In this document: piece by piece, positions 44,612 to 64,000 of the stretch
Layout of the letters: the number at the start of each line of letters is the position of its first letter
Position numbering within the stretch: the first letter of the stretch is position 1
From: Fimbriimonadia bacterium
GTDB lineage: Bacteria > Armatimonadota > Fimbriimonadia > Fimbriimonadales > JABRVX01
Assembly: GCA_041483895.1 (NCBI GenBank)
Contig: JBGPGO010000013.1
Span: 58,196-122,195 of the forward strand
Direction: 5' to 3'
DNA length: 64,000 nt
Translations under genes and position numbers: made by a program
Notes under the pieces: generated by a model
What the model was told of the DNA's origin: nothing
The model's input: only the letters and a program-made list of their open reading frames with translations
The model's database searches: none

Positions 44612-44622
44612 ATCTACACCTC

Positions 44623-45967: not shown

Positions 45968-46870
45968 ATGTCAGGGACCGAACAAGATATCCAGAAGTCC
46001 ACCTGGCGCACCAAGGTGGGGCTGGCGGAGATGCTCAAGGGCGGCGTCATTATGGACGTCACCAACGTTGAGCAGGCCCGAATTGCCGAAGACGCGGGGG
46101 CTGTGGCGGTCATGGCCCTGGAGCGCGTCCCCGCCGACATCCGGGCGCAAGGCGGAGTGGCCCGCATGTCCGACCCCGCCATGATCCGCGCCATCAAGGC
46201 CGCTGTCTCCATCCCTGTCATGGCCAAGTGCCGCATCGGCCATTTCGTGGAGGCCGAAATTCTGCAGGCCCTCGACATCGACTTCATCGACGAGAGCGAA
46301 GTGCTGACCCCCGCCGACGAAGAGCATCACGTGGACAAGCACCCGTTCCGAATCCCGTTCGTCTGCGGCGCGCGCAACCTCGGGGAGTTCCTGCGGCGCG
46401 TGGCCGAGGGGGCGGCGCTTGTGCGGACCAAGGGCGAGGCCGGAACCGGCGATGTGGTCGAGGCCGTCCGGCACATGAACGCGATCATGAACGATTTCCG
46501 GCGAATCCTGAACGCCCCGGAACGGGAGCTGAGCGCGATCGCCAAAGAGCTGCAGGCGCCGTACGAGCAGGTGGCCGACGTGAAAAAAGAGGGCAAGCTG
46601 CCTGTGCCCAACTTCTCGGCGGGCGGCATCGCGACCCCCGCGGACGCGGCGCTCCTGATGAAGCTCGGCGCGGAATCCGTGTTCGTCGGCAGCGGGATAT
46701 TCAAATCCGAAGACCCGGCGCGGCGGGCCAAGGCAATCGTCCTGGCCGCCACCTATCACGACGATCCGCACAAGCTGGCGGAGATATCGACCGGTTTGGG
46801 CACCCCGATGACGGGAGTTGCCGCAGCCTCGCTGGAAGAGCGGGAGCTTTTGGCCGTCCGTGGGTGGTAA
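45968..46870 (+). CDS. pdxS: Pyridoxal 5'-phosphate synthase lyase subunit
   Basis: [36 protein letters not shown]. Confidence 0.97.
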
Positions 46871-47429
46871 TCCGCCGGTCGGCGTCTTGGCCTTGCAGGG
46901 CGATTTCGACGCGCACATCCAGGCGTTGCAGCGCTTTGGTTTTGGGGCTGTGCCGGTCCGCCGAAAGTCAGAGCTGGATCGGGTGGACCGGCTGATCATC
47001 CCCGGCGGCGAGAGCACGACTGTCTCCAAGCTGCTTGCCTTCGAGGGGCTGGACAAGGCGATTCGGGACAGGGCGGCGGCGGGGATGCCGATTTGGGGCA
47101 CCTGCATGGGCCTTATCGTTATCGCGAAAAACGTCACGAACCGGCTGGTCCCCACGCTCGATTTGTTGGATGCCACTGTGGACCGGAACGCATACGGGTC
47201 GCAGCTGGACAGCTTTGAGGCCGAACTCAACTTTTTGCCCTCTGCCAGTAAGATTCATGGGATCTTTATCCGCGCGCCGAAAATACTAGCAATGGGCGCG
47301 GATGTCGAGGTGGTGGTGACGCACGGAAAGTCGCCGGTTGGAGTGCGCCAAGGATCTTTCCTCGGCACCACATTCCATCCGGAGCTGACGGACGACCCGA
47401 CGGTCCATTCGTACTTTGTCAGTCTTTAA
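46860..47429 (+). CDS. pdxT: Pyridoxal 5'-phosphate synthase glutaminase subunit
   Basis: GVLALQG, PGGEST, GTCMG, FIRAP, FHPEL. Confidence 0.95.
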
Positions 47430-47476
47430 TCGGGAACGGATAGGTCGGGTTTTGGGGTTAAGAATAGACGAGAGGA

Positions 47477-47566
47477 TTTGTCATTCCGAAGCGAAGCGAG
47501 GAATCTGGTTCCGTCGAAGATCTGGCTGTGGGAAAGGGATTCCTCGCTTCGCTTCGGAATGACAAA
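47477..47566. repeat. TGTCATTCCG-type palindromic repeat, copy 2
   Basis: TTTGTCATTCCGAAGCGAAGCGAGGAATC ... GATTCCTCGCTTCGCTTCGGAATGACAAA. Confidence 0.9.
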
Positions 47567-47605
47567 CTTGGGATTCACTAAGACAGCGCTCGGAGAGGTG
47601 ACGAG

Positions 47606-48856
47606 ATGAGATTGATGCTACGAAGGTTCTTGGCGCCGTGCCTGGCCGCATTGGCGCTCGTTGCGGTTTCCCATGCCGAAGGATTGAGCGTCGAGGCGCG
47701 GGCGAAGGTTTTCGACAAGATCGTTTCGATCCTGAAGACCACCGCCTATCTGCCGGAAGTGACGAACGAGCAGTTGGACAAGGCGGTTGCGGACAATCGG
47801 GACAAGATCATCAACGAGGAGACCGACGCGCGTTTTGGCGCCTCGATTGACCGGTTCCTGGACCAGTGGCATTTTTCTCATATCAATCTGCTGACCCCGA
47901 CGGAGGCGAAGCGCCGCTCGACCCAGAAAATGGTTGGGCTCGGGGTGGAGATGAATACTTCCGGCGGCTCGGTCGAGGTGGTTTACGTCTACCCTGGTTC
48001 CGGCGCCGATGATATCGGTTTGCGGCCCGGCGACAGAATTCTGGAGATCGATGGCGAGCCGTATAGCCGGCTGAAGGGGGCATCCGGGGAGCCGGGAGCG
48101 ACCTTCAGCCTGACATATGCAACCCCCGACGGCGCGAAGCACACACGTCGCGTCGTCCGCAAGAACTTCAATTTGCAGAAGACCGTTGTTGCCAAGATGC
48201 TGGATAACTCGACCGGCTACATCCGCCTCTGGTCCTTTACTCCGTATAGCTACAAAGAGGTGCGCGAGGCGTTTGAAAAGTTGGGGAACGCGCCCAATTT
48301 GGTGGTTGACCTTCGCCTAAACAGCGGCGGTTCCGTGATGAACATGATCGATTTCCTCAGCTATTTCCTTCCGGCCAAAACGCGGATCGGAGCGTTCTAC
48401 AGCAAGCGGGAGGACGGCACCGTTTCCGAGCAGCCGTCGGTGATCGGGACGGCGCGGAAGATGAAGTATCGCGGGCATGTGGCGCTTTTGATCGACGAGG
48501 GATCGGCCAGCGCCAGCGAGATCACCGCCGCGGCTCTGCAAGAAAGCCATCGTGCGGTTGTGGTTGGCCACCGGTCCGCGCGGGCAGTGCTCTCTTCCAC
48601 CTTCGTTTCGATTGGAGAGGGCTACCAGCTGCAGATTCCCATCGCGGACTATAAGACTGTCGCCGGTGTGCGGTTGGAAGGCAATGGCGTGACGCCGGAC
48701 CTGGTCATGGAGCGGATGCCGAGGGTGCTGCCGAACGAGCCGGACGAGGTAGTCGACACCGCGCGCCGCGTCCTGCTGGGCGAAGTGAAGGTGCCGCCGA
48801 AGTCGGACGCCCAGACGCTGCACACGCAAAGGGTCAGCCGCCCGCGCAGAGGCTGA
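47606..48856 (+). CDS. S41 family C-terminal processing peptidase with PDZ domain
   Basis: GLGVE, GLRPGDRILEIDG, DLRLNSGG, SASASE, LEGNGVTPD. Confidence 0.88.
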   Translation: MRLMLRRFLAPCLAALALVAVSHAEGLSVEARAKVFDKIVSILKTTAYLPEVTNEQLDKAVADNRDKIINEETDARFGASIDRFLDQWHFSHINLLTPTEAKRRSTQKMVGLGVEMNTSGGSVEVVYVYPGSGADDIGLRPGDRILEIDGEPYSRLKGASGEPGATFSLTYATPDGAKHTRRVVRKNFNLQKTVVAKMLDNSTGYIRLWSFTPYSYKEVREAFEKLGNAPNLVVDLRLNSGGSVMNMIDFLSYFLPAKTRIGAFYSKREDGTVSEQPSVIGTARKMKYRGHVALLIDEGSASASEITAAALQESHRAVVVGHRSARAVLSSTFVSIGEGYQLQIPIADYKTVAGVRLEGNGVTPDLVMERMPRVLPNEPDEVVDTARRVLLGEVKVPPKSDAQTLHTQRVSRPRRG

Positions 48857-48926
48857 TGTCGTTGTAAATAAGGGCATGAATGGGGCGGAGGACTGTGCCA
48901 CACTATAACTTTGGGGAGGTGGCGAT

Positions 48927-50048
48927 ATGGTCACGAAGGCCCAGTTTGAAGAACTGTTGGAAAGCCGCGAGGGCCGGCATCTGTCTCTCTACATGCCCAT
49001 CCATCGCAGCAGCGCGGAGGGCGAACAGGACCGGACGTTGCTCAAGAATCTGCTGCAACAAGCCGCGCGTTCTTTGACGGGCGAGGACCTCATCGGCAAT
49101 GATGCGTCCCGAATCCTTGCGCCGGCCATTAAACTGCTTGACGTGCCTATCTTGTGGCATGCGAACGGAGATGGCTTCGGTCTGTTCCTGGCCCCTGGTT
49201 TCTTCCGTACGATACAGCTATCCGGGTCATGCTCGGAGAAGGTGGTTGTCGGCCGGCGGTTCCATGTGCTTCCGCTCCTGCCGGAGATATCGGACGGCGG
49301 CCAGTTCTTTGTGCTCGCTTTGGATGAAAATCACGTTCGGTCGTTCCGAGGCGATCGTTATCGGCTGGTAGAGTTCGAGCCGCCGGGGCTGGCGGAAAGC
49401 TTGGCCGAGGTGATGAAGCTGGACGATCCGCAGAAGGAGCTTCAGTACCATGCGACCGCGAAGGGCGGGTGGCCGATGTTTCACGGGAATGCTGGCGGGT
49501 CGGATGATATGGAGCGGCAAGTGCAACGGTTTTGCGAGGTAGTGGACCAGGGGTTGCATCCGCTCTTGCGCGAGACGACCGCGCCTTTGGTCCTGGCCGC
49601 GACGGTGGATTTGGCGGCGGAGTATCGGAAGGTCACGCATTACGGGCACGTTTGGCCGCACGTGATCGAGGGCAGTCCGAAGATGCTGACCACGGAGACG
49701 CTGTATGGGAAGGCGACCGAGCTTTTGGGCGCGTATTTCTTCTCTGGATTTGGGAACGCGTTGGACAGATACCATGAGTTGGCGGGTACCGGCCAGACGT
49801 CTTTGGATGCGGCGGAAATCTGCGCGGCGGCGTGGCAGGGCCGGGTGGCTGACCTGATTGTGGAGCCATCCGCGTGCGTGATGGGGATGATGGACGACGC
49901 GACCGGTTCCGCGCGGCTTTCAGACGAAGGGGAAAATTTGGTCAACGTTGCGGCGATCTACGCGTTTAAGAACCGCGCTGGCGTCTTTTCCGCGCCCCCC
50001 TCCGGTCTGCCGGACCTCGGCCCCCTCGCGGCGACATTTCGGTACTAG
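48927..50048 (+). CDS. Bacterial aeRF1-like (baeRF3/7-type) protein
   Basis: LSLYMPIH, LKNLL, RFHVLPLLP, FFVLALD, PLVLAA, AAWQGRVADL pattern; no GGQ. Confidence 0.75.
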   Translation: MVTKAQFEELLESREGRHLSLYMPIHRSSAEGEQDRTLLKNLLQQAARSLTGEDLIGNDASRILAPAIKLLDVPILWHANGDGFGLFLAPGFFRTIQLSGSCSEKVVVGRRFHVLPLLPEISDGGQFFVLALDENHVRSFRGDRYRLVEFEPPGLAESLAEVMKLDDPQKELQYHATAKGGWPMFHGNAGGSDDMERQVQRFCEVVDQGLHPLLRETTAPLVLAATVDLAAEYRKVTHYGHVWPHVIEGSPKMLTTETLYGKATELLGAYFFSGFGNALDRYHELAGTGQTSLDAAEICAAAWQGRVADLIVEPSACVMGMMDDATGSARLSDEGENLVNVAAIYAFKNRAGVFSAPPSGLPDLGPLAATFRY

Positions 50049-50068
50049 GCGCCGGGAGGGGAACGACT

Positions 50069-50097
50069 TTATCCCGTGACGATTGCATCGCCACGGG
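50069..50097. repeat. Short palindrome variant
   Basis: TTATCCCGTGACGATTGCATCGCCACGGG. Confidence 0.65.
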
Positions 50098-50100
50098 TAG

Positions 50101-50260
50101 TTGTCATTCCGAGCATTTCGGGGATTCCCTTTTGGGCCGCCAGGCTCTGTCATTCCGAAGCGGAGCGAGGAATCCCTTTCAGAACCCATCTGCCGGCAAC
50201 CCCAAATCGTAGTAGCTGGGAGGCCCAGAAAGGGATTCCTCGCTTCGCGTCGGAATGACA
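50101..50260. repeat. TGTCATTCCG-type palindromic repeat, copy 3 (plus a half copy at 50101)
   Basis: TGTCATTCCGAAGCGGAGCGAGGAATCCCTTTC (50148) ... GAAAGGGATTCCTCGCTTCGCGTCGGAATGACA (50260). Confidence 0.9.
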
Positions 50261-50273
50261 AACCTCCATATAC

Positions 50274-50307
50274 ATCTCCCTTCACAATCCCAATTGTGAA
50301 GGGAGAT
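50274..50307. repeat. Perfect 15-bp hairpin related to the 40511/40547 palindromes
   Basis: ATCTCCCTTCACAAT-CCCA-ATTGTGAAGGGAGAT. Confidence 0.8.
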
Positions 50308-50478
50308 CCAGTTGCCGGGATCGCCGGGCTGAGGTGATGTGTTGGGGTTCACGTCCGCCGAATCGTTGTCACTGCCGACCACCAAAGACCCCAACACATC
50401 GGGTACACCGATATCCCCTGACAGCCGCACAGTCCGGGGCGATTCGGAACGATAGATTTCTAATGCGGAAGAATCCTC

Positions 50479-50564
50479 CGGCTCCGCTCAGGACAGGCTT
50501 GGCTTTTTCTGCAATTCCGTTCGGCAGGCCTTCGGCTCCGCTCAGGCCATGGCTCAGGACAGGC
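50479..50564. repeat. Degenerate GCTCAGGACAGGC REP-like units
   Basis: CGGCTCCGCTCAGGACAGGC (50479), CTTCGGCTCCGCTCAGG (50530), GCTCAGGACAGGC (50552). Confidence 0.65.
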
Positions 50565-50634
50565 CTGTGGCCACAGTTGGGGGATATTGTACCAGGAGAT
50601 ATAGACGGTTGTCTACTCTTTGGGACTTTCGGAC

Positions 50635-50826
50635 CGGTGGCGGGCCGGCCCCGCCGAGGAGATTCGGCCCGGCGACGTGGTGTGGTTCCCGCCCGGAGAG
50701 AAGCATTGGCACGGCGCTGCGGCGACGACGGCCCTCACCCACATCGCCATTCAGGAACAGCAGGGCGGTAAGATGGTGGACAGGATGGAACAGGTCACCG
50801 ACGACCAGTACCAGGCGTCGCCATAA
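50635..50826 (+). pseudogene. 3' remnant of a cupin-domain gene
   Basis: [32 protein letters not shown] (cupin motif 2) with no N-terminal half. Confidence 0.75.
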
Positions 50827-50940
50827 CGTCCGGGCCGGCAGGGCCAGGTGCGGCAGGCCGGAGTTGCACGGTCAGGAGACCGGAAAAAAAACCGGCGCAT
50901 GGGTGGAACACCCATGCGCGTCGGGGCGAAGGAGGAGACA

Positions 50941-51543
50941 ATGGCCGATAAGCCAGATGACCTTGAGGCAGTGCGCAATCTCGTGGAGATTCTTGGCCCA
51001 TTCGATTCTGTAGAAAGGGAACGGATACTCAGGTGGTCCCGCGAAAAGCTTGGCCTCCCTGCGGAGACCGCAGTTGCACCCAGCGGAACAAGTGGAATTC
51101 CTGCACCGGCAACTATCACCGCCGAGGGGGCCAAAGACATCAAGAGTTTCGTGGCCGAGAAGCAACCAAAGAGCGACAATCAATTCGCAGCGACAGTGGC
51201 GCATTACTACCGGTTTGTAGCTCCGGAGGCGAACAGAAAGGAGTCGATTACGGGTGATGACCTACAGGAAGCGTGTCGCCTTGCTGGAAGGAATCGGCTG
51301 CCGAAGCCAGGGCAAACCTTGATAAACGCGCATGCGGCTGGCCTCCTTGACAAAGCCGACCGTGGATCTTACGCCATTAGCACAGTCGGGGAAAACTTGG
51401 TCGCGGTTACGCTTCCATCGGGTGCTGCCCCATCCGGCCCCCGCTCCGTTGCGCGGCGCAAGCCGGCGAAGACGAACGCAAGGAAACCGGCGAAACCGCC
51501 AACGAAGAATGTGCCGAAAGCCAAGGGCAGGAAAAAGACCTAG
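50941..51543 (+). CDS. Hypothetical protein, predicted winged-helix with Lys-rich tail
   Basis: AGGAG RBS; NAHAAGLLDKADRGSYAISTVGENLV wing-like motif; KPAK-rich C-terminus. Confidence 0.7.
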   Translation: MADKPDDLEAVRNLVEILGPFDSVERERILRWSREKLGLPAETAVAPSGTSGIPAPATITAEGAKDIKSFVAEKQPKSDNQFAATVAHYYRFVAPEANRKESITGDDLQEACRLAGRNRLPKPGQTLINAHAAGLLDKADRGSYAISTVGENLVAVTLPSGAAPSGPRSVARRKPAKTNARKPAKPPTKNVPKAKGRKKT

Positions 51544-51549
51544 ACGCCA

Positions 51550-52356
51550 ATGCCTGACTCTCACACTGCGCTCGAAGCTGCGATGAGTGATGCGGAAGGG
51601 TTACGGAGCTACCTAAAGAAAAACAAGACTCCGCAGGTACGGTCAGTCGAAGAGAGGGAGCTGATTAAGGCTAATTGCCTCGCCTGGTTTAGGAATCACA
51701 GGGCAATCATTCGGTCGTCGGTGGCAGACGACCTTCTCGAAGAAACAGATGGGGCCTACAATGCCATACTCGCGGCCGCCGATCGGGCGACCTCTCGTCC
51801 GCGATATGACGTACTATTAAAGGGGCTTCGGAAGCTCCTGTCGGATTTGCGCTCCTATGTCTTGGCACCAACCGCTGTTGCAGTCCCAACATCCGACAAA
51901 CCTCCTGCATTCGACGCCCTCGTGTCAGATCCAAAAATGCGCGAGGTGCTGAAGCGTCGCTGGATGGAATGCACGAAGTGCGTGGCAGCTGGCGCGCCGC
52001 TTGCCGCGACGGTCATGATGGGCGGTTTGCTCGAATCGCTCCTGCTGGCCCGAGTGAACCGCGAGGTGGACAAGACGCAAATATTCGGTGCCGCGACCGC
52101 TCCGAAAGATCGTCAAAGCGGCAAAGCAATTCCATTGCAGGAATGGACGTTGCGCCATTACATCGACGTTGCTCATGAATTGGGATGGATATCCCCTTCG
52201 GCAAAAGACGTTGGTGAGGTCATCCGAGATTATCGTAACTACGTGCATCCGCACAAGGAACTCTTGCACTCTGTTGCCCTTGGGGATAACGATGCGCATC
52301 TGTTTTGGGAGATCTCCAAGAGCATCTCCAAGCAAGTTCTCGCCTCGGCTGTTTAA
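51550..52356 (+). CDS. HEPN/DUF4145-like helical protein
   Basis: LAATVMMGGLLESLL, WTLRHYIDVAHELGWI, IRDYRNYVHP. Confidence 0.7.
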   Translation: MPDSHTALEAAMSDAEGLRSYLKKNKTPQVRSVEERELIKANCLAWFRNHRAIIRSSVADDLLEETDGAYNAILAAADRATSRPRYDVLLKGLRKLLSDLRSYVLAPTAVAVPTSDKPPAFDALVSDPKMREVLKRRWMECTKCVAAGAPLAATVMMGGLLESLLLARVNREVDKTQIFGAATAPKDRQSGKAIPLQEWTLRHYIDVAHELGWISPSAKDVGEVIRDYRNYVHPHKELLHSVALGDNDAHLFWEISKSISKQVLASAV

Positions 52357-52389
52357 TCCCCTCAACCTGCCGCCACGCAGGGCGGATTC

Positions 52390-53376
52390 TCATTTCTCGC
52401 TGCGAATCAAATCTGCCAAGAGCTGGAACTGATGGTTGTCGTTGACGCCCCTAAATGCCGCGCACAGCGCATCATACGCCTCCTGCTTTATGAGGACTTC
52501 GACAGGCTTCTCGTCGGGCATCACAATGTCTGCAACGAGCTCCGGTGCCTTCTTGACTGCTTCGATAACTGCCGCGCTTATTGCATCGATGTCATCGAGA
52601 GATCCAATCAGCTCCCTCAAAGCCGATGCGGTATTCTCGGACAACCAGACCCTGACGACGCCGGCGCGAACGACTTCACCAATTACCGTCCATACGAAGA
52701 GATTAGGATCGCCGAGTGGAGGAACGTCGAAGTAAGGCTGAATTTTTGCTCCCGCCTCGGATGTGACCGAGTACCTTTTCGCCCCTGTTGCTTTCTCGTA
52801 AATCCAAAGATTTGTGCTCGATTTGCGGCCACCCTGACTTGTCCTCCCCTTTACCCATTCAGCGCGATAGTCGCTTGGATCGGGTTTGAGCATTTCCTCT
52901 TCAAAATAGAGAAACTGGCGCAAACTCGTTTGCCACAACAACCAACCAGTACGCATGTCCGGATTGCCCTTGAGTGCTCCTGCCTGAATCACCTTCTGAC
53001 GCCTTTCTTCCACTAAGTCTCCGTATTGGGTCAGGATACGTGCCATGGCATCATTTGGATCGGTTGACGCTGGTGGAACGCGGATCGATCGGGTGAGTGA
53101 TGGATGCATGGGCGATGTTCCGCAAGTTTCGCGGATGTCTTTGTCCGACCTCCGACACAGCATCTTGTGCTCAACGCCGAGAGGCCCATGCATAACATCA
53201 ATATTCAGGTTCGACCATCCAGTTACGGGTATCTGCTTCGCCTTGCAGTATATGTCGCGCCAGTCGCCTTCCTCCATCTTGCGACCCATCATTTTGAGGA
53301 CCGCCAGAGCTAGTAATTCTTGTACTGCGTCGGCCTCGTCTTTTGTGAATGCCACGAGAACCTTGGGCCTAGCCAT
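52390..53376 (-). CDS. Putative restriction endonuclease (PD-(D/E)xK-like)
   Basis: IDVMHGPLGVEHK candidate catalytic motif; overlaps the methyltransferase stop. Confidence 0.55.
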   Translation of the reverse strand: MARPKVLVAFTKDEADAVQELLALAVLKMMGRKMEEGDWRDIYCKAKQIPVTGWSNLNIDVMHGPLGVEHKMLCRRSDKDIRETCGTSPMHPSLTRSIRVPPASTDPNDAMARILTQYGDLVEERRQKVIQAGALKGNPDMRTGWLLWQTSLRQFLYFEEEMLKPDPSDYRAEWVKGRTSQGGRKSSTNLWIYEKATGAKRYSVTSEAGAKIQPYFDVPPLGDPNLFVWTVIGEVVRAGVVRVWLSENTASALRELIGSLDDIDAISAAVIEAVKKAPELVADIVMPDEKPVEVLIKQEAYDALCAAFRGVNDNHQFQLLADLIRSEK

Positions 53377-55216
53377 CGACCACTTCTTGCCTCACTTCAT
53401 CTACGAGCAAACGGAACGAATCAAAGTCAAACTGGACGAGCTGGTGAGGTACCGCATATGCAAGCCAATCCGCATAAAGCCGGCGATAGTCGAACTCATT
53501 TGCGCGGTTGACGTGCAAATACCGTACGGTGAGGGCGTCGCCCGACCGGATTCGCTTCGTGATGAAGTCAAGTACATTCTCCTTTGCATACTTGTTCCTA
53601 ATGAGATGAGTTGGCGGCGCGTCACACTTCCGGCAGTGCAGGACAAGGTCATACCCAACTGCATTGTCTGATACGAACATCTTGAATGTTCCGTGCTCCT
53701 TGTCGAATGTTTGGGTGCCCGAAATGACAAAGCCAGCATCGATAATGGCGTGCTGTATTGCGGCCCATGCCTTCGCAGAGGAGTTGTGGAACACGACGGT
53801 AAGCCAGGCATCGGCCTTCAGCACGCGCCGAATCTCTTCAAAAGCCTTCCTGAGAAGCGCTTGATAATCACCGTAACTCTTACATTGCACCGCGTTAACG
53901 ATTGCTTCGTCCGTGTTATCCGTGAAGTGTTGAAGCCAGCTCTCCCATAGAAAATTCATTTCGGAATAGTTGATGTTGCTTCCGAACGGCACATCGGTGA
54001 AGACGTAGTCGATGGAATTTGCTGATAGTTGATGTAGCTTGGTTGCGGACTGGGTGCTCACCTGCAAACGCCGGTCTATTGCGGCAGCCGATTTGAAGTA
54101 CCAGCTGATCGTGTGCGCCTTACGCAGGAACGTCCTAAACACATTCTGCTCATTAATGATTGCTGGCACGTTATAGTTGGCAGTGTTGCCACTGCCCCCC
54201 CAAAAACGAAATTCGCTGAAGAGTGTCACACGCTGGTAGAGGGACGTGAGGGTGAAAAGAAGTTTCTCGCGGACGTCCGCCTCAGGCCACTCAGAACATA
54301 ACGCCCACAGATGAGCCATTGCGTGGAGTGCCCTAGTTGTGTAGCATTTGTCGACGCTGGTTATCCCTGCTGCGATGGGTTGCTTCGTGTTGACGCCGAC
54401 CGGGAAGGGGTCAGTCGGGTACCAGAGATCGGCGGGGATCCCGCGACCTTCGATGCATTCGAGTCGCCTGAGGTCCCCGGCATCTAGTTCGACCGCCTGC
54501 TCCTTATTGCTCCGCTCGCAGCACTTGTAGCCGATCTGAACGGGATACCTGCGAGTTCGGCGGAGACCACGCTTCTTGATTTGCTGATGGCAGTGTGGGC
54601 AAGAGAACTCAGCAAGAATCTTGCTCTCTCGAACAGATTCTCGCTCGTCACGGGCCACATCCCACAAAAGGAACTCTGATCGGCAGAGATTGCAGATTAG
54701 TCCGTAGCTCCACACCGTGTAGATCATCGGCGTTTTTGTTCCGCAGATCCGGCATTCAGTGGCGTAGAGGGCATCTTCGAGTGCCATTGACCTGCGCATC
54801 ACTTCGTTAACCGCATTCAAGTAGCGAACGGAATCGATGGGAGTGTTCAGATTGTAGGCGATGAAGACCGCAGCCGGAGACAAGTCCGAAAGCAATGCGG
54901 TGCGGCCCAGCTCAGTTGCAGCGATCCCCGTCATTCCAGAACCGCAGAACGGATCAAGTACAACGTCCCCATGATTAGTGAAGTGTTGGATAAGTAGCTT
55001 TATGCCTTCAGGAGGCACCTTCGTATGATAGGTATGCGCGTCGTAAGCGTAGCTGTTCTTGCCAGCGGAAATATTGAGGGCGTACGGGCGTTCCACATCT
55101 CTCACGGGCTGATCCGGCGCAGCCACCGAACCGAAATCTGGATTCGCACGTAAGCAGAGCCTCGCCTCATGACGAGGAGAGTAAAGAGTAAATGCTAGTT
55201 GCTCTCGGATGATCAT
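53369..55216 (-). CDS. Amino (m6A/m4C) DNA methyltransferase with Cys-rich insert
   Basis: HTYHTKVP, motif I VLDPFCGSG, motif IV variant DYVFTDVPF, CxxC clusters. Confidence 0.88.
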   Translation of the reverse strand: MIIREQLAFTLYSPRHEARLCLRANPDFGSVAAPDQPVRDVERPYALNISAGKNSYAYDAHTYHTKVPPEGIKLLIQHFTNHGDVVLDPFCGSGMTGIAATELGRTALLSDLSPAAVFIAYNLNTPIDSVRYLNAVNEVMRRSMALEDALYATECRICGTKTPMIYTVWSYGLICNLCRSEFLLWDVARDERESVRESKILAEFSCPHCHQQIKKRGLRRTRRYPVQIGYKCCERSNKEQAVELDAGDLRRLECIEGRGIPADLWYPTDPFPVGVNTKQPIAAGITSVDKCYTTRALHAMAHLWALCSEWPEADVREKLLFTLTSLYQRVTLFSEFRFWGGSGNTANYNVPAIINEQNVFRTFLRKAHTISWYFKSAAAIDRRLQVSTQSATKLHQLSANSIDYVFTDVPFGSNINYSEMNFLWESWLQHFTDNTDEAIVNAVQCKSYGDYQALLRKAFEEIRRVLKADAWLTVVFHNSSAKAWAAIQHAIIDAGFVISGTQTFDKEHGTFKMFVSDNAVGYDLVLHCRKCDAPPTHLIRNKYAKENVLDFITKRIRSGDALTVRYLHVNRANEFDYRRLYADWLAYAVPHQLVQFDFDSFRLLVDEVRQEVVDG

Positions 55217-55480
55217 TTTATTGGCTCAGAATGTAACAAGGATTCCAGCGATTCGTCTCCACGCCGCAGTTACCCGGCTTGAGCTGCTGTAACTTCTCCA
55301 GTTTCGGCGTTGCCACACCTCGACAAGGCTGGTGAAGGGCAGCAATTTGGCCTTATCTCACCCGGATTCCGTCTCGGATTCTGTTCTCCTGCCGCATAGA
55401 CTCTGCGATACGCGACTTTTGTGACAAACATAACCTTAAGGAGCAAAACTCCTACCCACGCGGTATTTCGGAGATATCCC

Positions 55481-57425
<1,945 letters not shown>

Positions 57426-57531
57426 AATCATCGCGAATTTGGTTTCTTCTGTGGGTGATCGGATTGGGGGCCGTCGTCGTTCTGGTCCATGCTATCCTTC
57501 ATCCAACGGCTCATATTCCATGAGGTTCATA

Positions 57532-58122
57532 ATGCGATTTCGATGCTTGGCCGTTAACTTTCTAATCGTTGGCTTGCTATTGCCGGCCATTGCGCAAGAT
57601 GTCCAGCCGAATACCCATGCCGGTGTGTGGCGGTGGGCGGTGAAGACCGGGCAGGATGCGCAGGCGGCGGATGTGGATTTTAGCCGGGCGCGCAAGTACA
57701 AGATCAGCACATTGTCGAATCTGTCCGCGCCCGGACATTTAGGGACGAATGTTGCGCGCGGTGTGACAAATGTCGAACTGAGATACTATGAGGTGTTGGC
57801 GACGGTTGTCAAGTGCAAGCTGGAGGCCGATGGCGATTATCACGTCATCGTCCAAGACTCCGGGGGCCGACAGTTGGGATGCGAGATCGTTCAGCCGGCG
57901 TTTAGCGAAAACAGCGCGTGGCACGATCAGATTCTACAGGTGCGGCAGGACTTTGAGGCGCAGTTCGGGGCTTCGACCGGGATTAATTCATCCTATCGGA
58001 ATTTGACACCCACCGTGGTCAAAATTCGCGGCGTCGGGTTTTGGGACGCAACTCATGGACAGAAGGGGCTGCCCAACGGTTTCGAGCTGCATCCCGTCTT
58101 GCAGATAACGTTTGTCAACTAG
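57532..58122 (+). CDS. Secreted protein, possible OB-fold
   Basis: Signal peptide; RWAVKTG, EADGDYH, GVGFWD, ELHPV; alternative start at 57520. Confidence 0.65.
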   Translation: MRFRCLAVNFLIVGLLLPAIAQDVQPNTHAGVWRWAVKTGQDAQAADVDFSRARKYKISTLSNLSAPGHLGTNVARGVTNVELRYYEVLATVVKCKLEADGDYHVIVQDSGGRQLGCEIVQPAFSENSAWHDQILQVRQDFEAQFGASTGINSSYRNLTPTVVKIRGVGFWDATHGQKGLPNGFELHPVLQITFVN

Positions 58123-58199
58123 AGCGACTGTGCTTTTTGGATGTCGCCTTCCAATAGCAATTTGACCGTGACCACAAGTGCCGGCGGGGACGAATCCGA

Positions 58200-59156
58200 T
58201 TATGCCCTGGGATGGGCTTTTTTGTACACTTCGCGCAGGCGCTCGTCGGAGACCTGGGTGTAGATTTGCGTGGTGGAAATGTCCGCGTGGCCGAGAAGCT
58301 CCTGAACGACGCGCAGGTCCGCACCGCCGGCCAATAGGTGGACCGCGAAGGAATGGCGGAGCGTGTGCGGGCTCAGTTTCTTCGTGATTCCGGCCATCTC
58401 AGCGTACTGGCTCAGCCGTTGCCAGAGGCCGACGCGGGAGAGGGGTCGACCGTGGACGTTGAGGAAAAGTTTTGTTGATTGCGCCCCGATCCGCTTCGCA
58501 ACGATGACAGCTTTCTCTTCCCCTCCTGGCGATGATTTGGGCGCCTTAAGAAGCACTGGGCGCGATTCCTCCACATAGCGCTGGAGCCACGTCTCTGCCG
58601 CTTTGCCGTAGGGAACCAACCGCTCCTTTCCCCGCTTGCCGATGACGCGGAGCAGGCAGTCGGCGCCGCGCAGATCGTCTATGTCTATGTCCAACAGTTC
58701 CGACACGCGCAACCCGGACGCATACAGCAGCTCCAACATGCACCGATCGCGAATTCCTAACGGCGTGGTTGTGTCCGGCTGCATCAAGAGCCGCTTAACT
58801 TCCGTCGTCGAAAGATGGTTCGGCAACCGCCTGTGAATTCGCGAAGATTGCGCCTCCCGGATGGGCGGTTCCGACAACGCGCCTCTGCGATACAAGAACT
58901 TTAGAAACGCCCGAACCGCGCACAGTTTCCTTGCGATCGACACATCGGCTAGGTTGGCGCGGCGCAGTGAGTGAGAGAATCGTTCCAGCGTGTCAGCCTC
59001 AAATAGCACCGACTGATCGATCTTCGCGGACACTATAAATTTCAAGAATACGTCGGTGTCGCGCGCATACGCCGACACGGTATGTTCGCTGGCCCGGCGC
59101 TCGCGCGCAAGGTGTGACAAGAACTGCTCTCGCAGCAAGTCTATTTGCGTTTCCAT
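58200..59156 (-). CDS. xerD: Tyrosine recombinase XerD/XerC family
   Basis: LELLYASGLRVSEL, GKRGKERLVP, SPHTLRHSFAVHLL, QELLGHADISTTQIYT. Confidence 0.88.
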   Translation of the reverse strand: METQIDLLREQFLSHLARERRASEHTVSAYARDTDVFLKFIVSAKIDQSVLFEADTLERFSHSLRRANLADVSIARKLCAVRAFLKFLYRRGALSEPPIREAQSSRIHRRLPNHLSTTEVKRLLMQPDTTTPLGIRDRCMLELLYASGLRVSELLDIDIDDLRGADCLLRVIGKRGKERLVPYGKAAETWLQRYVEESRPVLLKAPKSSPGGEEKAVIVAKRIGAQSTKLFLNVHGRPLSRVGLWQRLSQYAEMAGITKKLSPHTLRHSFAVHLLAGGADLRVVQELLGHADISTTQIYTQVSDERLREVYKKAHPRA

Positions 59157-60808
59157 ACACGTATCCCAGGCGCGATATACATCATATCATGTGACATGCG
59201 ATGCTGATACTCGCCGTTCGAATCTATTAAGTATGCATATCCGAACTGTGCCACTAACACATACTGCTCATCCAGCATGTGTTTTGTTGACACATAGCCG
59301 GGAAGCCGCACCCGATCCGCGTCCACGTCCTCGTAAGAGGAGTACACGACATAGTCGGGTCGAAGCTCAGAGATCAGTTTTGGGTCCCAATCACTTACCC
59401 GAGCTTGCACCGTCGAATAATAGAGCAATCGAAAGTCAGCAATTTGACTCATTTCCTTCAGCCGTTCGATGGCGCCAAGGACTCCAAACCCAGCGCCGGT
59501 ATCTTGAAAGAGTGGGGGTGTATAGAACCATGGGACTGTCGTGAATCCAATGCTATGCCCATTCGCGTTCTGCGAAAGCCATAGCGCCGCTCGGTCGCGC
59601 GGGTCTTCCTTGGACATCAATTCCGTGACGACGGAAAAGTTGATGCCGCCGATGACGGAAAAGACGAGGATCGCTCCCGCAGCAACGGCCGCACGGCTTT
59701 CGACCAGCGTCTCTCGAAGTCCGAGCGAAAGCATATACCCGGCGTATGCGCATGCTATCGGCGTAAGAGGCAAAATGTAGCGAAGGAACTTGACATTGAC
59801 TTCGTAGATTCCTGGGATTCCGCAGATCATGATGGTGTATGGGACGGCAAATGCGAGCAGCAACAGCGCGGTTTTTTCCTTGCGCTGGATCGCATAAAAC
59901 AGGCCGACGATGGCGACCAACGGCACACCCAAGCCCACCGCCTCGATCAGATTCCCGAATTGGAACGGCCAAGCGTTCGGCGTCTGCGCGAACACCAGCC
60001 CGTGTCCTTCCCGAACATGCTGCGCCTCGAATGATAGGTCCTGCATGAATTTTCCATTGTCTAGCAGCGCACCCGGCGTGGTGACGAAGAACGCGGCGGC
60101 CAGGCAGACGATGCCAAGAAGTCCCACCGGCCAGTTCCATTTCCGCATCATCAGCGCAATGATCAACGGCAGCTCGACAAGGATCATATTGTATTTCGTC
60201 GCCGCTGCCAGCCCCGCAAGCGCCGAGCCCCACAAAAACAGACTGCGCGCGCTCCGATCGCTCTTGGCTTCGTAGGTCTTCAGGGCCAGCAACAGGGCGG
60301 CGGTCACGAAAAAGGTGGCAGGCACATCCACCGTATGGAATCGGGAATGGACCAGATGGCCCGGCGAAATCAGCAACGCGATCCCGGCGGTCAGACCTCC
60401 GGCGAGGCCCCCGATCCGACGACCGATGAAATAGGTCAGCCCAACGGTGAGCGAGCCGAGCAACGCGGATACCACCCTGCACGCGAGATGCGCCCCCGCC
60501 ATCGACGCCGGCGACACCAATCCCCAACCGGTCGCCACCTTGATCGCCAGGCTCATTATGTATAACCATAGGGACCCATAGTTATAAAAATGTGGGTTCC
60601 AGATACCGTGGCCCAGGTCGAGCTGCGACACGTAGCTCATCAAGAGATACTCGTCCGGGTGGTAGGTCTGGTTGTGCAGCGCGTTCGGCAAACCCCATGT
60701 TATCCCGATGAGGCGAAGCAGGAACGCGAGGACGATTAAGGCGGTTGGCCAAACCCAAACCGGCACGGGCCGGCGAGGCTTAGGCGGTGCCTGTTCTGAT
60801 TCCGACAT
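59141..60808 (-). CDS. GT-C polytopic glycosyltransferase (family 39/ArnT-like)
   Basis: HPDE motif after the first TM, GLAAATKY, RYILP; many TM helices. Confidence 0.85.
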   Translation of the reverse strand: MSESEQAPPKPRRPVPVWVWPTALIVLAFLLRLIGITWGLPNALHNQTYHPDEYLLMSYVSQLDLGHGIWNPHFYNYGSLWLYIMSLAIKVATGWGLVSPASMAGAHLACRVVSALLGSLTVGLTYFIGRRIGGLAGGLTAGIALLISPGHLVHSRFHTVDVPATFFVTAALLLALKTYEAKSDRSARSLFLWGSALAGLAAATKYNMILVELPLIIALMMRKWNWPVGLLGIVCLAAAFFVTTPGALLDNGKFMQDLSFEAQHVREGHGLVFAQTPNAWPFQFGNLIEAVGLGVPLVAIVGLFYAIQRKEKTALLLLAFAVPYTIMICGIPGIYEVNVKFLRYILPLTPIACAYAGYMLSLGLRETLVESRAAVAAGAILVFSVIGGINFSVVTELMSKEDPRDRAALWLSQNANGHSIGFTTVPWFYTPPLFQDTGAGFGVLGAIERLKEMSQIADFRLLYYSTVQARVSDWDPKLISELRPDYVVYSSYEDVDADRVRLPGYVSTKHMLDEQYVLVAQFGYAYLIDSNGEYQHRMSHDMMYIAPGIRVWKRK

Positions 60809-61457
60809 TCGCTGCGGGCCTTGTATTTGTCCAAACTGTATCCAGGAAGCAGTCAACGATTGCGGGATCGAATCGTGTTCCGCGACCGGATTCCAGCAAA
60901 TCCACGCCGTCCATACGGTTCGCGCTGGCCCCGCTGTAGGCGGATGCGACCGCAAGCACGCGCGCCTCAATCGGAATCTCGAAACCCGCCGGCAGATACG
61001 GCGTTCGCGTCCCATCCCACCATGCCAGCACGTTCTGTACGACCGGAGCGAGAGAGCGCAGCGACGGGATAAGCTCCAACATGGATGCCCCGACCTCGGG
61101 GTGTCTCGCGAATGTCGCCTGTTCTGGTTCCGTCCTCTCGGCGACCGATTTGTTTAAGATTTGATAGGGAATCGCGGTCATTCCTATGTTGCAAAGATAC
61201 GAAGCCAATTCCAATCTCCCCAGCACGCGCTTGGACAGACCCAGAGCTGACCCGATCTTTAGCGCCAATTCACACACCTGATCGGAACGGCCATACCGAT
61301 CGTGGCAGCGGCAGTCCACGGCATGCGCAAACGCCCGAACGCTTCCTCGCAAGCGTTCGCGGGAATCGCGGGGCAGCCGCCAGCCGGCGTGATAGACCAG
61401 GATGGCGGTGAGGCCGGTGGACAGCAGGATAAGCAGAAACAGCAGCGGTCCGGTCAT
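60780..61457 (-). CDS. Degenerate HD-GYP domain protein with N-terminal TM
   Basis: HD-GYP scaffold (HPEVGA, EIPIEARVLAVA, GTRFDP) but LCNIG in place of LHDIG and no HHE/GYP. Confidence 0.8.
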   Translation of the reverse strand: MTGPLLFLLILLSTGLTAILVYHAGWRLPRDSRERLRGSVRAFAHAVDCRCHDRYGRSDQVCELALKIGSALGLSKRVLGRLELASYLCNIGMTAIPYQILNKSVAERTEPEQATFARHPEVGASMLELIPSLRSLAPVVQNVLAWWDGTRTPYLPAGFEIPIEARVLAVASAYSGASANRMDGVDLLESGRGTRFDPAIVDCFLDTVWTNTRPAANVGIRTGTA

Positions 61458-62782
61458 GCGGCCCCCTGCTCTCGCACGATCTGCGTAAACGCCATCACAA
61501 CCCGCTCATCGAACTGCTTGCCCGCGCAATCGTGCAGCTCCCGCATGGCCTGCTCCACTCCCATCGACACCCGGTACGGACGCTGCTCGCCCGGCCGGTC
61601 CCCGCCTACCATGGCATCGAAGGCGTCGGCGACCGCGATGATCTTGGCCTGAATCGGAATCTCCGTATCGGAAAGCGCTTTTGGATACCCATTCCCATCC
61701 GGCCGCTCATGGTGGGCATAGATCCAGGGCACCACCGGCTCCATCATTCCGACCCGGCTCAAAATCTCCGCACCAATCACCGGATGCATCCGCACCAGCG
61801 CCCATTCCTGCTCATCCAACCGTCCCGGCTTGTTCAAAATCTGCTCGTCGATGGCGATCTTGCCCAGATCATGGAGGAGCGCGGCATCGAACATCAGGTC
61901 CACGTCCTGGCTGGATAGCCCCAATCGCTCCGCTGTGAGCGCGGCGAAGCGGGCGACTCGGTCCAGGTGCCCACCGGTATAGGGATGGGCATGCTGCATC
62001 ATGAGGCCCAAAGCGCGGATCGTCTCGCGATAGTCCCGATCGTGCCGTGCCCGCAGAAGGAAGCATCGGCGCGCGGCGGCCATTGGAAGAAAGAAGAACG
62101 CACAGGCCCAGTATTGGCCGAAGTATGCCAACAGGCCGATCCAGGTGGCCAGCAGCGCATAGACCCCGTAGTGGAACCCGACGAGCCGCCGCTTCTCCTG
62201 CAGGCGCGCCAGGAACCGGCCGCCGTAAACCACCGACTCGGCAATCGCAACGATCACGGAGTTGACAATTAGATAGACCGGCGTTGCGACAAGTGTGGCG
62301 AGGGCAATGCCGGACGCGCCGCCCATCGAGTGGGTAATTGGGAGAACCGCCATGCCTGCCACGGACGCGCTCATGGCCGACTGGGCCGCGTTGAAAAGAG
62401 GCCACTGCCAGCGGGTTCGAAACTTGGATCGGACCGCCAAGATGCCCGCCACGAGGGTCGCGCCGCCATCGATGATGGCCGCATCCGCGGGCCCGAAAAC
62501 CGCCGCGACCGCCACGACAATCGGCAATGACACGCTGATTTGCACTCCATGCTCACCAACAGGGACCGGGACCCACTCGGCGGCAAGCACCAATCCAAAA
62601 AACAGCGCGAGCGGGAGTAAGAGAGACGAAACGGGTGGCATGAGGAACCAGCTCAGCCCAAATGCGGCAAAGCCGAGGATGATGACGGCCCATATTGCCT
62701 GATTTTGCGGCCGGATGCCGGTCGGATTAGGCAATCGCTTTCCCCCAGGGTGCGAGAATTTGCCTTCGCGGGGCGGGCGCAC
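61454..62782 (-). CDS. Membrane-integral HD-GYP phosphodiesterase
   Basis: About 6-7 TM helices, then YTGGH, LHDLGK, HHERPDGNGYP, VADAFDAM, RPYR; start uncertain. Confidence 0.9.
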   Translation of the reverse strand: MRPPREGKFSHPGGKRLPNPTGIRPQNQAIWAVIILGFAAFGLSWFLMPPVSSLLLPLALFFGLVLAAEWVPVPVGEHGVQISVSLPIVVAVAAVFGPADAAIIDGGATLVAGILAVRSKFRTRWQWPLFNAAQSAMSASVAGMAVLPITHSMGGASGIALATLVATPVYLIVNSVIVAIAESVVYGGRFLARLQEKRRLVGFHYGVYALLATWIGLLAYFGQYWACAFFFLPMAAARRCFLLRARHDRDYRETIRALGLMMQHAHPYTGGHLDRVARFAALTAERLGLSSQDVDLMFDAALLHDLGKIAIDEQILNKPGRLDEQEWALVRMHPVIGAEILSRVGMMEPVVPWIYAHHERPDGNGYPKALSDTEIPIQAKIIAVADAFDAMVGGDRPGEQRPYRVSMGVEQAMRELHDCAGKQFDERVVMAFTQIVREQGAA

Positions 62783-62796
62783 TTCGTCAAGTGGTC

Positions 62797-62922
62797 CTAT
62801 CGGCTCGATGAGCCGATGGACGGGTTGGAGGAATTTGCCTCCGGTGGATAGATGGTGAACTTGGCTCCGAAAAGAGCGCCAAGCGCCATCAGGAACGCGA
62901 TGATGTTTGCCCAGCGTATCAT
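62797..62922 (-). CDS. Small 41-aa hydrophobic peptide (not in the ORF track)
   Basis: MIRWANIIAFLMALGALFGAKFTIYPPEANSSNPSIGSSSR; AGGGGGT RBS-like sequence upstream; co-oriented between flanking genes. Confidence 0.65.
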   Translation of the reverse strand: MIRWANIIAFLMALGALFGAKFTIYPPEANSSNPSIGSSSR

Positions 62923-63024
62923 GGCAACACCCCCTGTGTTGGATTGGGATCCCCTCAAGGGTATGCCTCCGCTTGGGTTCCGCTTCGCTTCGCGCCCGGT
63001 CCCCGCGAATTCTATATTAAATTG

Positions 63025-63702
63025 TCAGGATTCTGTTTGCGGTTCGACCGGCAGCCACATCAGCCGCCGGTTCAATGCGTCGAGCGTGGCATGCGCCACA
63101 GCCCGCGACGTGTCGCTCTGTTGTACCACAGCCGAGCCGGCGAGCAGTTGATCGGAAGCGTCGCCCACTAGGCTCACCAGAACGACCACAACTTTCATGC
63201 CGCCCAGCATTTCGCACAGGGTCAAATCTTGTAGGGCAAAGCGATCCACTTGGCCCAGCGCCTCCTCAACAGCGTTCACGGTCGCCTGTGCCACGAGCCG
63301 GAGAGTGTTGAAACTGGATCGCTGACCGTCGGCGCTACCGGTGAACACTCTTCCATTCTTGGCCAGCGTGACGGCGGCTTTCGCTTTGCGGCCTTCTTGG
63401 GACATCGCCACGTCGAGCCAGCGCAGGCGGTCGATGGCGGTCACGGTGGGGTCAATCTGGGCGATGCTGATCGCCTTATGATCGATGGAGATGCCGTGAC
63501 GGGCCAGCAGCGTGGATTCGATGTCTCGAACCACCTGCTTCGGATTGCGCTCCCCGTTCATCAAAGCATGAATCTCTTTGATCGAGTTCGGGGCATCCAT
63601 CACGACTTTTGCGTTGGCCACGCTCCGAAGTTGGCCGAGTGACGACTCCAACTCCGAGGCGGTCCAAGTCTCCTGCTTCATTTCCCCTGCTCCCATCGAC
63701 AA
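63025..63702 (-). CDS. Hypothetical cytoplasmic protein upstream of the HD-GYP pair
   Basis: IKEIHAL...RNPKQVVRDIES..., ISIAQI, ATLDALNRR; start may be 63696 or 63681. Confidence 0.75.
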   Translation of the reverse strand: MSMGAGEMKQETWTASELESSLGQLRSVANAKVVMDAPNSIKEIHALMNGERNPKQVVRDIESTLLARHGISIDHKAISIAQIDPTVTAIDRLRWLDVAMSQEGRKAKAAVTLAKNGRVFTGSADGQRSSFNTLRLVAQATVNAVEEALGQVDRFALQDLTLCEMLGGMKVVVVLVSLVGDASDQLLAGSAVVQQSDTSRAVAHATLDALNRRLMWLPVEPQTES

Positions 63703-63781
63703 TCGAGCAAGGATATCATATCACAATTGGCCGGTTGTTTGTACAGATCGCGCGAGAAAAGTTATGCAAAACCGACCACAG

Positions 63782-63871
63782 TGTCATTCCGAAGGAGCTT
63801 GCGACTGAGGAATCCCTTTCTGAAGTCCTTGTTGTCAACAAACGTTGCAGGATGTCGAGAGGTTCTGAAAG
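63782..63871. repeat. TGTCATTCCG-type repeat, copy 4, right arm interrupted by an IS
   Basis: Left arm TGTCATTCCGAAGGAGCTTGCGACTGAGGAATCCCTTTC; right arm stops after GAAAG at 63871. Confidence 0.8.
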
Positions 63872-64000
63872 ATGCTGTCTTGTCAAGTGGCGAGTGGATC
63901 GTAGAACGGCTTGCGGTTTTTGAGCACGCTGTAGAGGATCAGCAGCAGCTTGCGCATCGCCGCGATCAGGGCTTGTTTCTTCGGCATGCCGCGTTCGACC
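63870..64000 (-). mobile_element. IS110-family element, right end and recombinase C-terminus (CDS 63883-64000, partial)
   Basis: VERGMPKKQALIAAMRKLLLILYSVLKNRKPFYDPLAT*; followed by TTGACAAGACAGCATCT end with no terminal inverted repeat. Confidence 0.85.

Follow-up and report, generated by a model that had tools for sequence, protein, structure and literature searches.

The end of a 64,000-nucleotide (nt) stretch of Fimbriimonadia DNA raises the question of what has interrupted a palindromic repeat that breaks off 129 nt before the sequence stops. The whole stretch, referred to here as the window (G000:C13:58196-122195), belongs to a genome assembly of 43 contigs and 3.95 Mb from an Armatimonadota lineage, and its end is also the end of contig C13 (122,195 bases). 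Positions 63872-64000 are very probably the right end of an insertion sequence of ~1.2 kb, here termed IS-A, an IS621-like member of the IS110 group (IS110 family), of the bridge-recombinase type. Each copy lies at the CT of GGAATCC-CT-TTCAG, in one arm of a ~110-nt palindromic host repeat.

Copies, junctions and recombinase of IS-A

The window's share of IS-A is 129 nt. These recur with 100% identity at three contig ends, namely both ends of C13 and the end of C4, and have no matches elsewhere in the assembly. Contig C13 ends at the window end because IS-A, being multi-copy, broke the assembly; the adjacent window that a first-pass annotation of this DNA had proposed to retrieve does not exist. 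Many contig ends carry common terminal overlaps of ~141 bases, as is usual for multi-copy elements, and the ends were sorted by the terminal sequence that they have in common.

Read on the minus strand, the 129 nt contain the last 38 codons of a gene (translation VERGMPKKQALIAAMRKLLLILYSVLKNRKPFYDPLAT) and a short non-coding right end, after which the host repeat begins. The right junction is GACAGCAT-CT-TTCAGAA at all three contig ends, continuing TTCAGAA(C/G)C. In the window, the minus strand after the core reads TTCAGAACC (63869-63861), and the plus strand reads GGTTCTGAAAG directly followed by ATGCTGTC. The first-pass annotation had described the right-end sequence, the CT core and the repeat junction correctly to the base. 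Its TTGACA is present at 63886-63881 of the minus strand, overlapping the stop codon; its 11-mer CTTTCAGAACC is identical at 50176-50186, within the GAGGAATCC-CT-TTCAGAACC (50167-50186) of an intact repeat; and the right arm of the repeat at 63783 does break at the junction, ending after GGTTCTGAAAG (63861-63871), exactly at the element.

The left side of the element was found at contig ends C3_L, C7_L and C34_L. Here, unique DNA passes into GTCATTCCGA..GCGAGGAATCC-CT-TGTGTGTTATTCTTATCCCGAAATC..., and the sequence after the CT is common to the three, and identical, over 127 nt. With an assembled copy on contig C15 and a scar on contig C16, both described below, the left junction GAGGAATCC-CT-TGTGTGTTA (reading ...GAGGAATCC-CT-TGTGTG...) is present at five of five places, and GAGGAATCC followed by CTTGTGTGTTA occurs five times genome-wide. 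Together, the left and right flanks rebuild one repeat arm, GGAATCC-CT-TTCAG, in which the CT core stands once, and nothing else of the target is duplicated. The two ends of the element, TGTGTGTT... and ...GACAGCAT, are by reading not inverted repeats of each other. It had been predicted from the window that the other flank would be the missing repeat arm and that other copies would occupy the same site; the former is true at all five left junctions in the genome, and the latter is borne out by CT-TTCAGAA at the three right contig ends and at the scar. IS110 elements recombine at a core dinucleotide, as described in the available part of PMC11208160, and the junction halves of IS-A display that pattern. 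Most probably, and as part of the explanation taken as a whole, the genome holds three near-identical copies of IS-A whose bodies were lost from the assembly and which survive as contig ends.

The interrupted sequence belongs to a family of host repeats. In the window copy, the left arm reads GTCATTCCGAAG...GAGGAATCCCTTTC, and the partner arm, expected to begin GGTTCTGAAAGGGATTCCTC, stops after GAAAG. Folded as DNA, the intact copy at 50149-50259 reaches -40.2 kcal/mol (z score -9.2; 0 of 200 shuffles as good), whereas a single arm is not stable as a hairpin (-3.4 kcal/mol, z 0.3) and only the whole palindrome folds. The 3.95-Mb genome contains 87 GAGGAATCC arms, of which 46 have GGAATCCCTTTC and 21 the full GGAATCCCTTTCA[AG]; the 11-mer CTTTCAGAACC occurs 17 times as part of this family. 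TTCAG is present at the three right junctions and at the C16 scar, whereas TTCA[AG] is present in only 21 of the 46 empty 12-nt sites. This bias at used sites fits a 7-nt right guide, the events being too few to prove it. The ~110-nt repeat is the host's and not part of IS-A, because its ~30-nt arm is also present in 9 of 60 related genomes without the element. The right end of IS-A was found in one of 61 genomes, the window's own, and the full left end likewise in that genome only, the repeat arm alone being matched in 9 of the 60 others; the donor-loop region of the left end was not found in genome G003.

The recombinase was identified through its C-terminus. A search of the 38-residue tail against 1.84 billion representative proteins returned 14 proteins at E<=0.001, the best of which, P0001 (328 residues), is 100% identical to the tail over residues 291-328 (E 6.5e-15). 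P0001 contains PF01548 (residues 13-155, E 7.7e-26) and PF02371 (residues 202-287, E 1.1e-21) in Pfam, in agreement with the original reading of the last 118 nt as an IS110 C-terminus; the tail alone, which sits after the PF02371 domain, has no Pfam match. Its 90%-identity cluster has six members, 99-100% identical and with intact frames; the contigs that carry them, in JGI/IMG and Logan records, are 1254-3643 nt long. The best solved-structure match of P0001 is the ISCro4 recombinase (PDB 9t56; residues 12-322 against 10-319, E 4.7e-46, catalytic motifs aligned), a protein-only comparison, and the same residues align with IS621 of Escherichia coli (PDB 8wt6; E 3.6e-44), where the protein homology is only distant. 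The motifs GID (D16), MEATG (E64), KTDALDA (D106, D109) and TSG (S247, G248) align with IS621 D11, E60, D102, D105, S241 and G242, residues whose roles are given in the part of PMC11208158 available to us. The DEDD RuvC-like N-terminus that had been expected next to the window is therefore present in a public protein identical to the window's 38 residues; both it and the PF02371 Tnp domain with its Ser-Gly loop are read in P0001 and not in the window or the assembly. Across the whole assembly PF02371 and PF01548 each match one place only, on C15, and the body of IS-A is absent. Counted from an internal Met used by two cluster members, the recombinase has 320 residues. The expected element, comprising a 220-nt left end, a 963-nt gene, an 11-nt right end and the core, is ~1.2 kb long, a size compatible with the public contigs (1254-1368 nt).

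The left ends and the window tail appear to belong to one element, because P0001 joins in one chain an N-terminus matching the left end (24 of 26) and the C-terminus of the window (38 of 38). The former match is to the open reading frame (ORF) behind the C15 left end, the only assembled copy of the left end, over residues 1-26 of P0001. The end counts agree, with three left and three right ends. The scar at C16:14674-14730 (minus strand) reads GAGGAATCC-CT-TGTGTGTTATTCTTATCCCGAAAT-CT-TTCAGAAC inside an otherwise intact repeat. This 26-bp footprint consists of 24 nt of the IS-A left end and a second CT; a single molecule here carries both the left junction and the right flank.

Candidate guides in the left end

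The left end is non-coding over 220 nt in the assembled C15 copy (locus L028); the three contig-end copies bear out the first 127 of these. Set against the 11-nt right end, this is the long non-coding left end that had been expected. According to the available text of PMC11208160 (section 7), the left guides of IS621 pair with the bottom strand and thus have top-strand sense, while the right guides are reverse complements, with the core included. Four candidate guides were located in the IS-A left end (Table 1), in the order left target, right target, left donor, right donor; this order and the strand sense of each are those of IS621. The matches were compared with 2000 dinucleotide shuffles of the left end. 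The 10-nt left target guide was reached by 3 of these, the 8-nt left donor guide by 2 and the 7-nt right donor guide by 13, and no shuffle reached all four guides together.

Table 1. Coordinates of IS-A, its target repeat and its candidate guides (window positions unless a locus is named)
Feature	Position	Strand or sense	Remarks
IS-A recombinase gene, 3' end (38 codons and stop)	63883..64000	-	Open frame 63886-63999, stop 63883-63885; cut by contig end
TTGACA, putative -35 half of a promoter rebuilt by the circle junction	63881..63886	-	Overlaps stop
Non-coding right end CAAGACAGCAT, 11 nt, left donor half-site	63872..63882	-	Identical at three contig ends; GACAGCAT matches the 8-nt left donor guide
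CT core dinucleotide, right junction	63870..63871	-	CT at 3/3 right and 5/5 left junctions
Right target half TTCAGAACC..., inner part of interrupted repeat arm	63857..63869	-	TTCAG can pair with left-end guide UUGAAAG
Interrupted repeat remnant	63783..63871	+	Intact left arm 63783-63820, spacer, first 11 nt of right arm; layout as in intact copies at C16_L and C28_L
Intact copy of ~110-nt palindromic host repeat	50149..50259	+	Single long hairpin as single-stranded DNA
Empty 14-nt target GGAATCC-CT-TTCAG	50169..50182	+	One of 21 empty GGAATCCCTTTCA[AG] sites in the genome
Further repeat copy	47480..47563	+	Minus-strand arm with GGAATCC-CT-TTC, 12-nt partial target
Candidate left target guide AGGAATCCCT (RNA AGGAAUCCCU)	L028 543-552	Same sense as GAGGAATCC-CT	10 nt
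Candidate right target guide TTGAAAG	L028 569-575	Reverse complement of CTTTCAA	7 nt; can pair with CTTTCAG, one G-U
Candidate left donor guide GACAGCAT (RNA GACAGCAU)	L028 609-616	Same sense as right end GACAGCAT	8 nt; next U could wobble with core
Candidate right donor guide ACACAAG	L028 653-659	Reverse complement of CT-TGTGT, left-end start	7 nt

A further correspondence lies beside the guides. The right target guide of IS621 is followed by a 2-nt handshake guide which, once strands have been exchanged, pairs with positions 6-7 of the donor (PMC11208158, as far as available). In IS-A, the two nucleotides at this place are AU, and the donor GACAGCAT has AT at positions 6-7, so that the two could pair. 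The right donor guide is followed by G and U; the G can pair with target C7, and the U cannot pair with C6.

The predicted folds place the guides in loops. Folded alone, the target module of the contig-end copies has a GCUCGA/UUGAGC stem, then an internal loop of 8x8 nt (AGGAAUCC / UUGAAAGA) and, innermost, the hairpin CUGGGA-GUCAGU-UCCCGG; an outer GGCCUCG/CGAGGCC stem encloses it. In the donor module of the C15 copy, also folded alone (z -2.1), both donor guides lie in a large internal loop between an outer stem and an inner hairpin. Ahead of both modules, on the 5' side, is the small hairpin CUAG-UCA-CUAG. The bridge RNA of IS621 is laid out as a 5' stem-loop, a target-binding loop and a donor-binding loop in the portion of PMC11208158 at hand. 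Folding the left end and looking for loops complementary to target and donor had been the check suggested by the first-pass annotation, and the loop strands of these modules match both.

If the left end acts as in IS621, its 220 nt would yield a bridge RNA of ~175 nt. The UUGAAAG of this RNA would pair with the top strand CTTTCAG, and the donor loop, GACAGCAU(U) together with ACACAAG, would pair with the right end-left end (RE-LE) junction of IS-A, GACAGCAT-CT-TGTGT. The protein partner would be the 320-residue DEDD/Ser recombinase encoded by IS-A. After excision of the element as a circle, the TTGACA of the right end and the TATTCT of the left end (nt 8-13) would form a promoter for the bridge RNA, with an 18-nt spacer across the RE-LE junction (17 nt to TTATTC; counted by hand). 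Rebuilding a promoter across the circle junction is the principle reported for IS621 (PMC11208160, available part).

Much of what the window had suggested about this end is upheld. The target proposed earlier, about GGAATCC-CT-TTCAG, is exactly what the candidate guides specify, and the argument that a short right end places the bridge RNA in the left end agrees with the left-end position at which the putative guides are read. The claim of an RNA-guided recombinase stands as regards the family, the target and the guide matches; that the RNA is produced, and that RNA rather than protein chooses the site, we infer.

Hybrid copy, scar and other elements of the genome

The C15 copy (C15:85940-87119, or L028 441-1620) is a degenerate hybrid: its left end and the gene up to codon 26 are those of IS-A, and the rest belongs to another IS110 lineage. 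Compared with the contig-end copies, its left end has 4 differences in 127 nt. Beyond the first 26 residues, of which 24 match P0001, identity drops to 28% overall with a 29-residue gap, and the C-terminus is 33% identical to the window tail (10/30). The recombinase is without part of the RuvC domain (~29 residues), the Pfam match starting from profile position 42 and the IS621 alignment from residue 56. The right end reads ...CCATAGAAA-CT-CGGAATGACA (also ..TATTGACATCCGACCATAGAAA-CT-CGGAATGACA) and lies directly against the outermost part of the opposite repeat arm; the repeat has lost its spacer and the inner portions of its arms.

A second IS621-like element, termed IS-B, is present in the same genome, with left ends at C12_L, C14_L, C15_L and C25_R, and right ends at C14_R, C21_L, C33_L, C31_L and C4_L and at C22:1-260 (loci L055, L056). 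Left junctions read ..(C/T)GCGG-CT-TGTATCTTATGGGG and right junctions ..TTGACAAATCAAGACAGCAT-CT-AC(A/C)(G/C). In its left end, CCGCGGCU and CUGUAG+AU match its own flanks, ..CCGCGG-CT and CT-ACAG; several of these flanks carry a different hairpin repeat (CGCAAGCTAAAGCGTGCG-like). Its 78-residue tail is 37% identical to P0001 (E 1e-12). For the IS-B left end, which the contig end truncates within the target module, the fold has an uninformative z score of about 0. The donor left half GACAGCAT-CT is common to IS-A and IS-B, but their target loops differ and are directed at two different host repeat families.

The origin of the C16 scar can be viewed in two ways. It could reflect a recombinase event at a pseudo-core or a plain microhomology deletion; its two break points have ATCT in common. 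Compared by eye with the donor and target halves, the internal left-end site matches at 3/7, 1/7, 2/5 and 0/5 positions, which leaves a guided event unsupported, and plain ATCT microhomology explains the scar as well as a recombinase event does. It is conceivable, though unlikely, that the genome keeps a natural record of off-pathway bridge recombination and retargeting, comprising the scar, the hybrid and the donor half common to IS-A and IS-B; the scar would then have arisen by recombination between the right junction and an AT-CT pseudo-core within the left end. According to a preprint abstract, 'half-match' events have to date been described for IS621 in cell-free work. The scar and the hybrid would be instances of such events in vivo, provided that the recombinase itself produced them and that neither slippage nor homologous recombination did.

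Related and unrelated elements were also encountered elsewhere. In a metagenome-assembled genome titled uncultured Armatimonadetes bacterium, two contig ends (L049 3001-3134 and L050 3001-3133) carry the same 21-nt right end, ..CCACTTGACAAGACAGCAT-CT. This closes a different IS110 gene, with a tail 63% identical (20/32), and adjoins a different repeat, a 44-nt unit that is in tandem in L050, with the flank CT-GCCACCC. With the same right end and another flank, the donor half is the same and the target different; the left end of this element was not found. A complete relative with a 340-residue IS110 gene (L034) was set aside, as a single copy leaves its ends not definable. In scans of public metagenome contigs, the right-end 21-mer had 0 matches and P0001 as query gave 285 pattern matches and no relative; records close to this genome may be missing from these scans.

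Two groups of six contig ends each in the window's own genome begin TGTT(C/T)AGAC(T/C)GG.. (C1_L, C9_R, C8_R, C26_L, C32_R and C18_L; C1_R, C28_R, C24_L, C27_L, C5_R and C2_R) and resemble the opposite, inverted ends of a further insertion sequence present in several copies. Most lie directly beside a CCCTCCCCCGC(A/T)(A/T)G motif, and this element, too, seems to prefer a host repeat. Further multi-copy elements lie at C5_L, C7_R, C9_L and C19_R, and at C10_L and C23_R. One of these starts TGGAGTGCCCCCGGAAATTTGAACC... and opens a frame ..KQSRFTEEQIVRILSEGERG.., which looks like an IS3-type first ORF.

In the window, the gene beside the insertion is a 225-residue ORF (63025-63702, minus strand) with no Pfam family; IS-A lies upstream of it and is oriented towards it. 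Beyond it, 61454-62782 encodes an HD_5/HD protein with a MASE9-like membrane part. Four sediment-metagenome runs were mapped on window 44001-64000 as short Logan contigs of DNA runs at 3-6x. The joints in these contigs are repeat-to-repeat bridges, and no loose end was seen at the insertion site or the empty target among the loose ends listed (150 more exist), so that this mapping gives no evidence either way on insertion polymorphism. At 46002-46668 and 55340-56006, within a PdxS (SOR/SNZ) gene and an S-adenosylhomocysteine hydrolase (AdoHcyase) gene, word depth is 90-230 against 3-6 elsewhere; this excess is conserved sequence of other organisms and not a feature of this genome.

Competing readings and relation to known elements

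Several observations weigh against IS-A as reconstructed here. Only 129 nt of the element lie inside the window, its body is unassembled, and the single assembled IS110 gene genome-wide is on C15. P0001 comes from public metagenome records (JGI/IMG, Logan) and may have its source outside this genome. A full left end and a full right end are never joined within one contig, and their pairing is deduced from P0001, from the scar and from the logic of the guides. On this last ground, the window tail and the C3/C7/C34 left ends might be two different IS110 elements using the same repeat, the true left end of the window element being another. At least three IS110 lineages are present in the genome (IS-A, IS-B and the 3' part of the C15 hybrid), the C15 copy itself has an IS-A left end ahead of a different recombinase and right end, and the left donor half GACAGCAT, common to IS-A and IS-B, means that the left donor guide alone cannot separate them. 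Two separate elements are nonetheless exceedingly unlikely. P0001 unites the left-end N-terminus with the window C-terminus, the three left ends match the three right ends in number, and the C16 scar has the IS-A left end inserted at CT-TTCAGAAC. Moreover, CTTTCAG, the sequence read by this left end's right target guide, flanks the IS-A right ends and not those of IS-B (CT-AC[AC]G), and the IS-B left ends carry matching guides of their own. With only 129 nt visible, and with decayed copies elsewhere in the genome (the C15 hybrid and the 26-bp scar), the window copy might also be taken for a dead, truncated remnant, a solo right end rather than a full, active element. This, too, is very improbable: there is 100% identity among the three right ends (129 nt) and among the three left ends (127 nt), contigs break exactly at both types of end, as would be expected for a repeat of at least three copies too long for the assembler, and the public contigs of 1254-1368 nt with an intact gene of 320/328 residues fit a collapsed 1.2-kb element.

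Other observations weigh against the guide assignments. The right target guide alone is not significant, as its best 6-mer was reached by 649 of 2000 shuffles and lay elsewhere in the left end. An unconstrained fold of the full C15 left end (z -3.0) is without the two-module shape, which appears only when the modules are folded singly, and the target module has a z score of only -0.67 (97-nt contig-end piece). The donor loop is readable in the C15 copy only, a degenerate hybrid in which two inner-stem pairs of the target loop are broken. No covariation is seen, the left-end copies being nearly identical, and a scan of six loci against Rfam 15 gave one unrelated sub-threshold match, in a database that may lack a bridge-RNA family. 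If IS-A is an IS110-family member in which the protein, or the hairpin shape of the repeat, sets the site, the matches between left end and target would be leftovers of captured target. Such a reading can point to the target's position within the stem of a very stable palindrome, to a preprint abstract reporting that a target stem-loop adds specificity for ISPpu10, to the missing Rfam match and covariation, and to the fact that RNA guidance is argued from sequence and fold. It is hard to reconcile with four guides in the order and sense of IS621, placed on opposite strands of two internal loops and accompanied by a handshake AU, with a second element of the same genome whose different guides match its different target, and with the end-to-end alignment of P0001 to two recombinases solved as bridge-RNA complexes. 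Site choice by protein or hairpin alone is therefore judged highly unlikely. A structural role of the palindrome is compatible with RNA guidance and is no replacement for it.

IS-A, read as a bridge-recombinase element, closely parallels IS621, whose features were compared from the available portions of PMC11208160 and PMC11208158. Both have a RuvC DEDD domain and a Tnp domain with a Ser-Gly loop, a CT core at both junctions without inverted terminal repeats, a long left end, and a very short right end with a -35 box (putative in IS-A). In both, the left-end RNA (predicted for IS-A) has a 5' hairpin, a target-binding loop and a donor-binding loop, the left guides have top-strand sense and the right guides are reverse complements, with a 2-nt handshake guide after the right target guide; both insert into a repeated palindromic host element. 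IS-A differs in its Armatimonadota host, in its 14-nt target and in being known here from sequence alone. Its right target guide can pair over 7 nt (one G-U), compared with 4 nt in IS621 as given in those portions, and its host repeat is a ~110-nt palindrome and not a short repetitive extragenic palindromic (REP) sequence.

Two further comparisons place the element within its family. Like ISPpu9 and ISPpu10, IS110-family elements of Pseudomonas putida that could be compared by published description only, IS-A is multi-copy and occupies one position of a repeated palindromic or stem-loop host sequence. In ISPpu10, according to that description, specificity is further gated by a GC-rich stem-loop on the 5' side of the target, whereas the IS-A target lies inside the long stem itself. 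The IS1111 group shares the recombinase family and the RNA-guided principle, and its elements have long right ends with the bridge RNA and subterminal inverted repeats of 7-17 bp; end lengths, with a long left and a short right end, separate the IS110 group from it (PMC11208160, available part). Membership of the IS1111 group was ruled out, the IS-A right end being 11 nt and its putative guides lying in the left end. IS-A appears to have the defining features of the IS110 group as regards protein domains, core dinucleotide, end lengths and candidate guide loops.

No publication in the literature collection searched names both 'Armatimonad*' and 'IS110'. IS110 elements that insert into REP-type repeats have reportedly long been known, from Tobes and Pareja in 2006 and from Choi et al. 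in 2003, both cited in PMC11208160. IS-A explains the assembly breaks at these places and leaves knowledge of how such elements work unchanged. It is a readable natural bridge-recombinase element from a little-studied phylum, in which a 14-nt target, a donor, four candidate guides and the putative handshake bases can be taken from the junctions. Together, IS-A and IS-B would form a ready pair for testing orthogonal natural bridge systems, with IS-B serving as an internal control.

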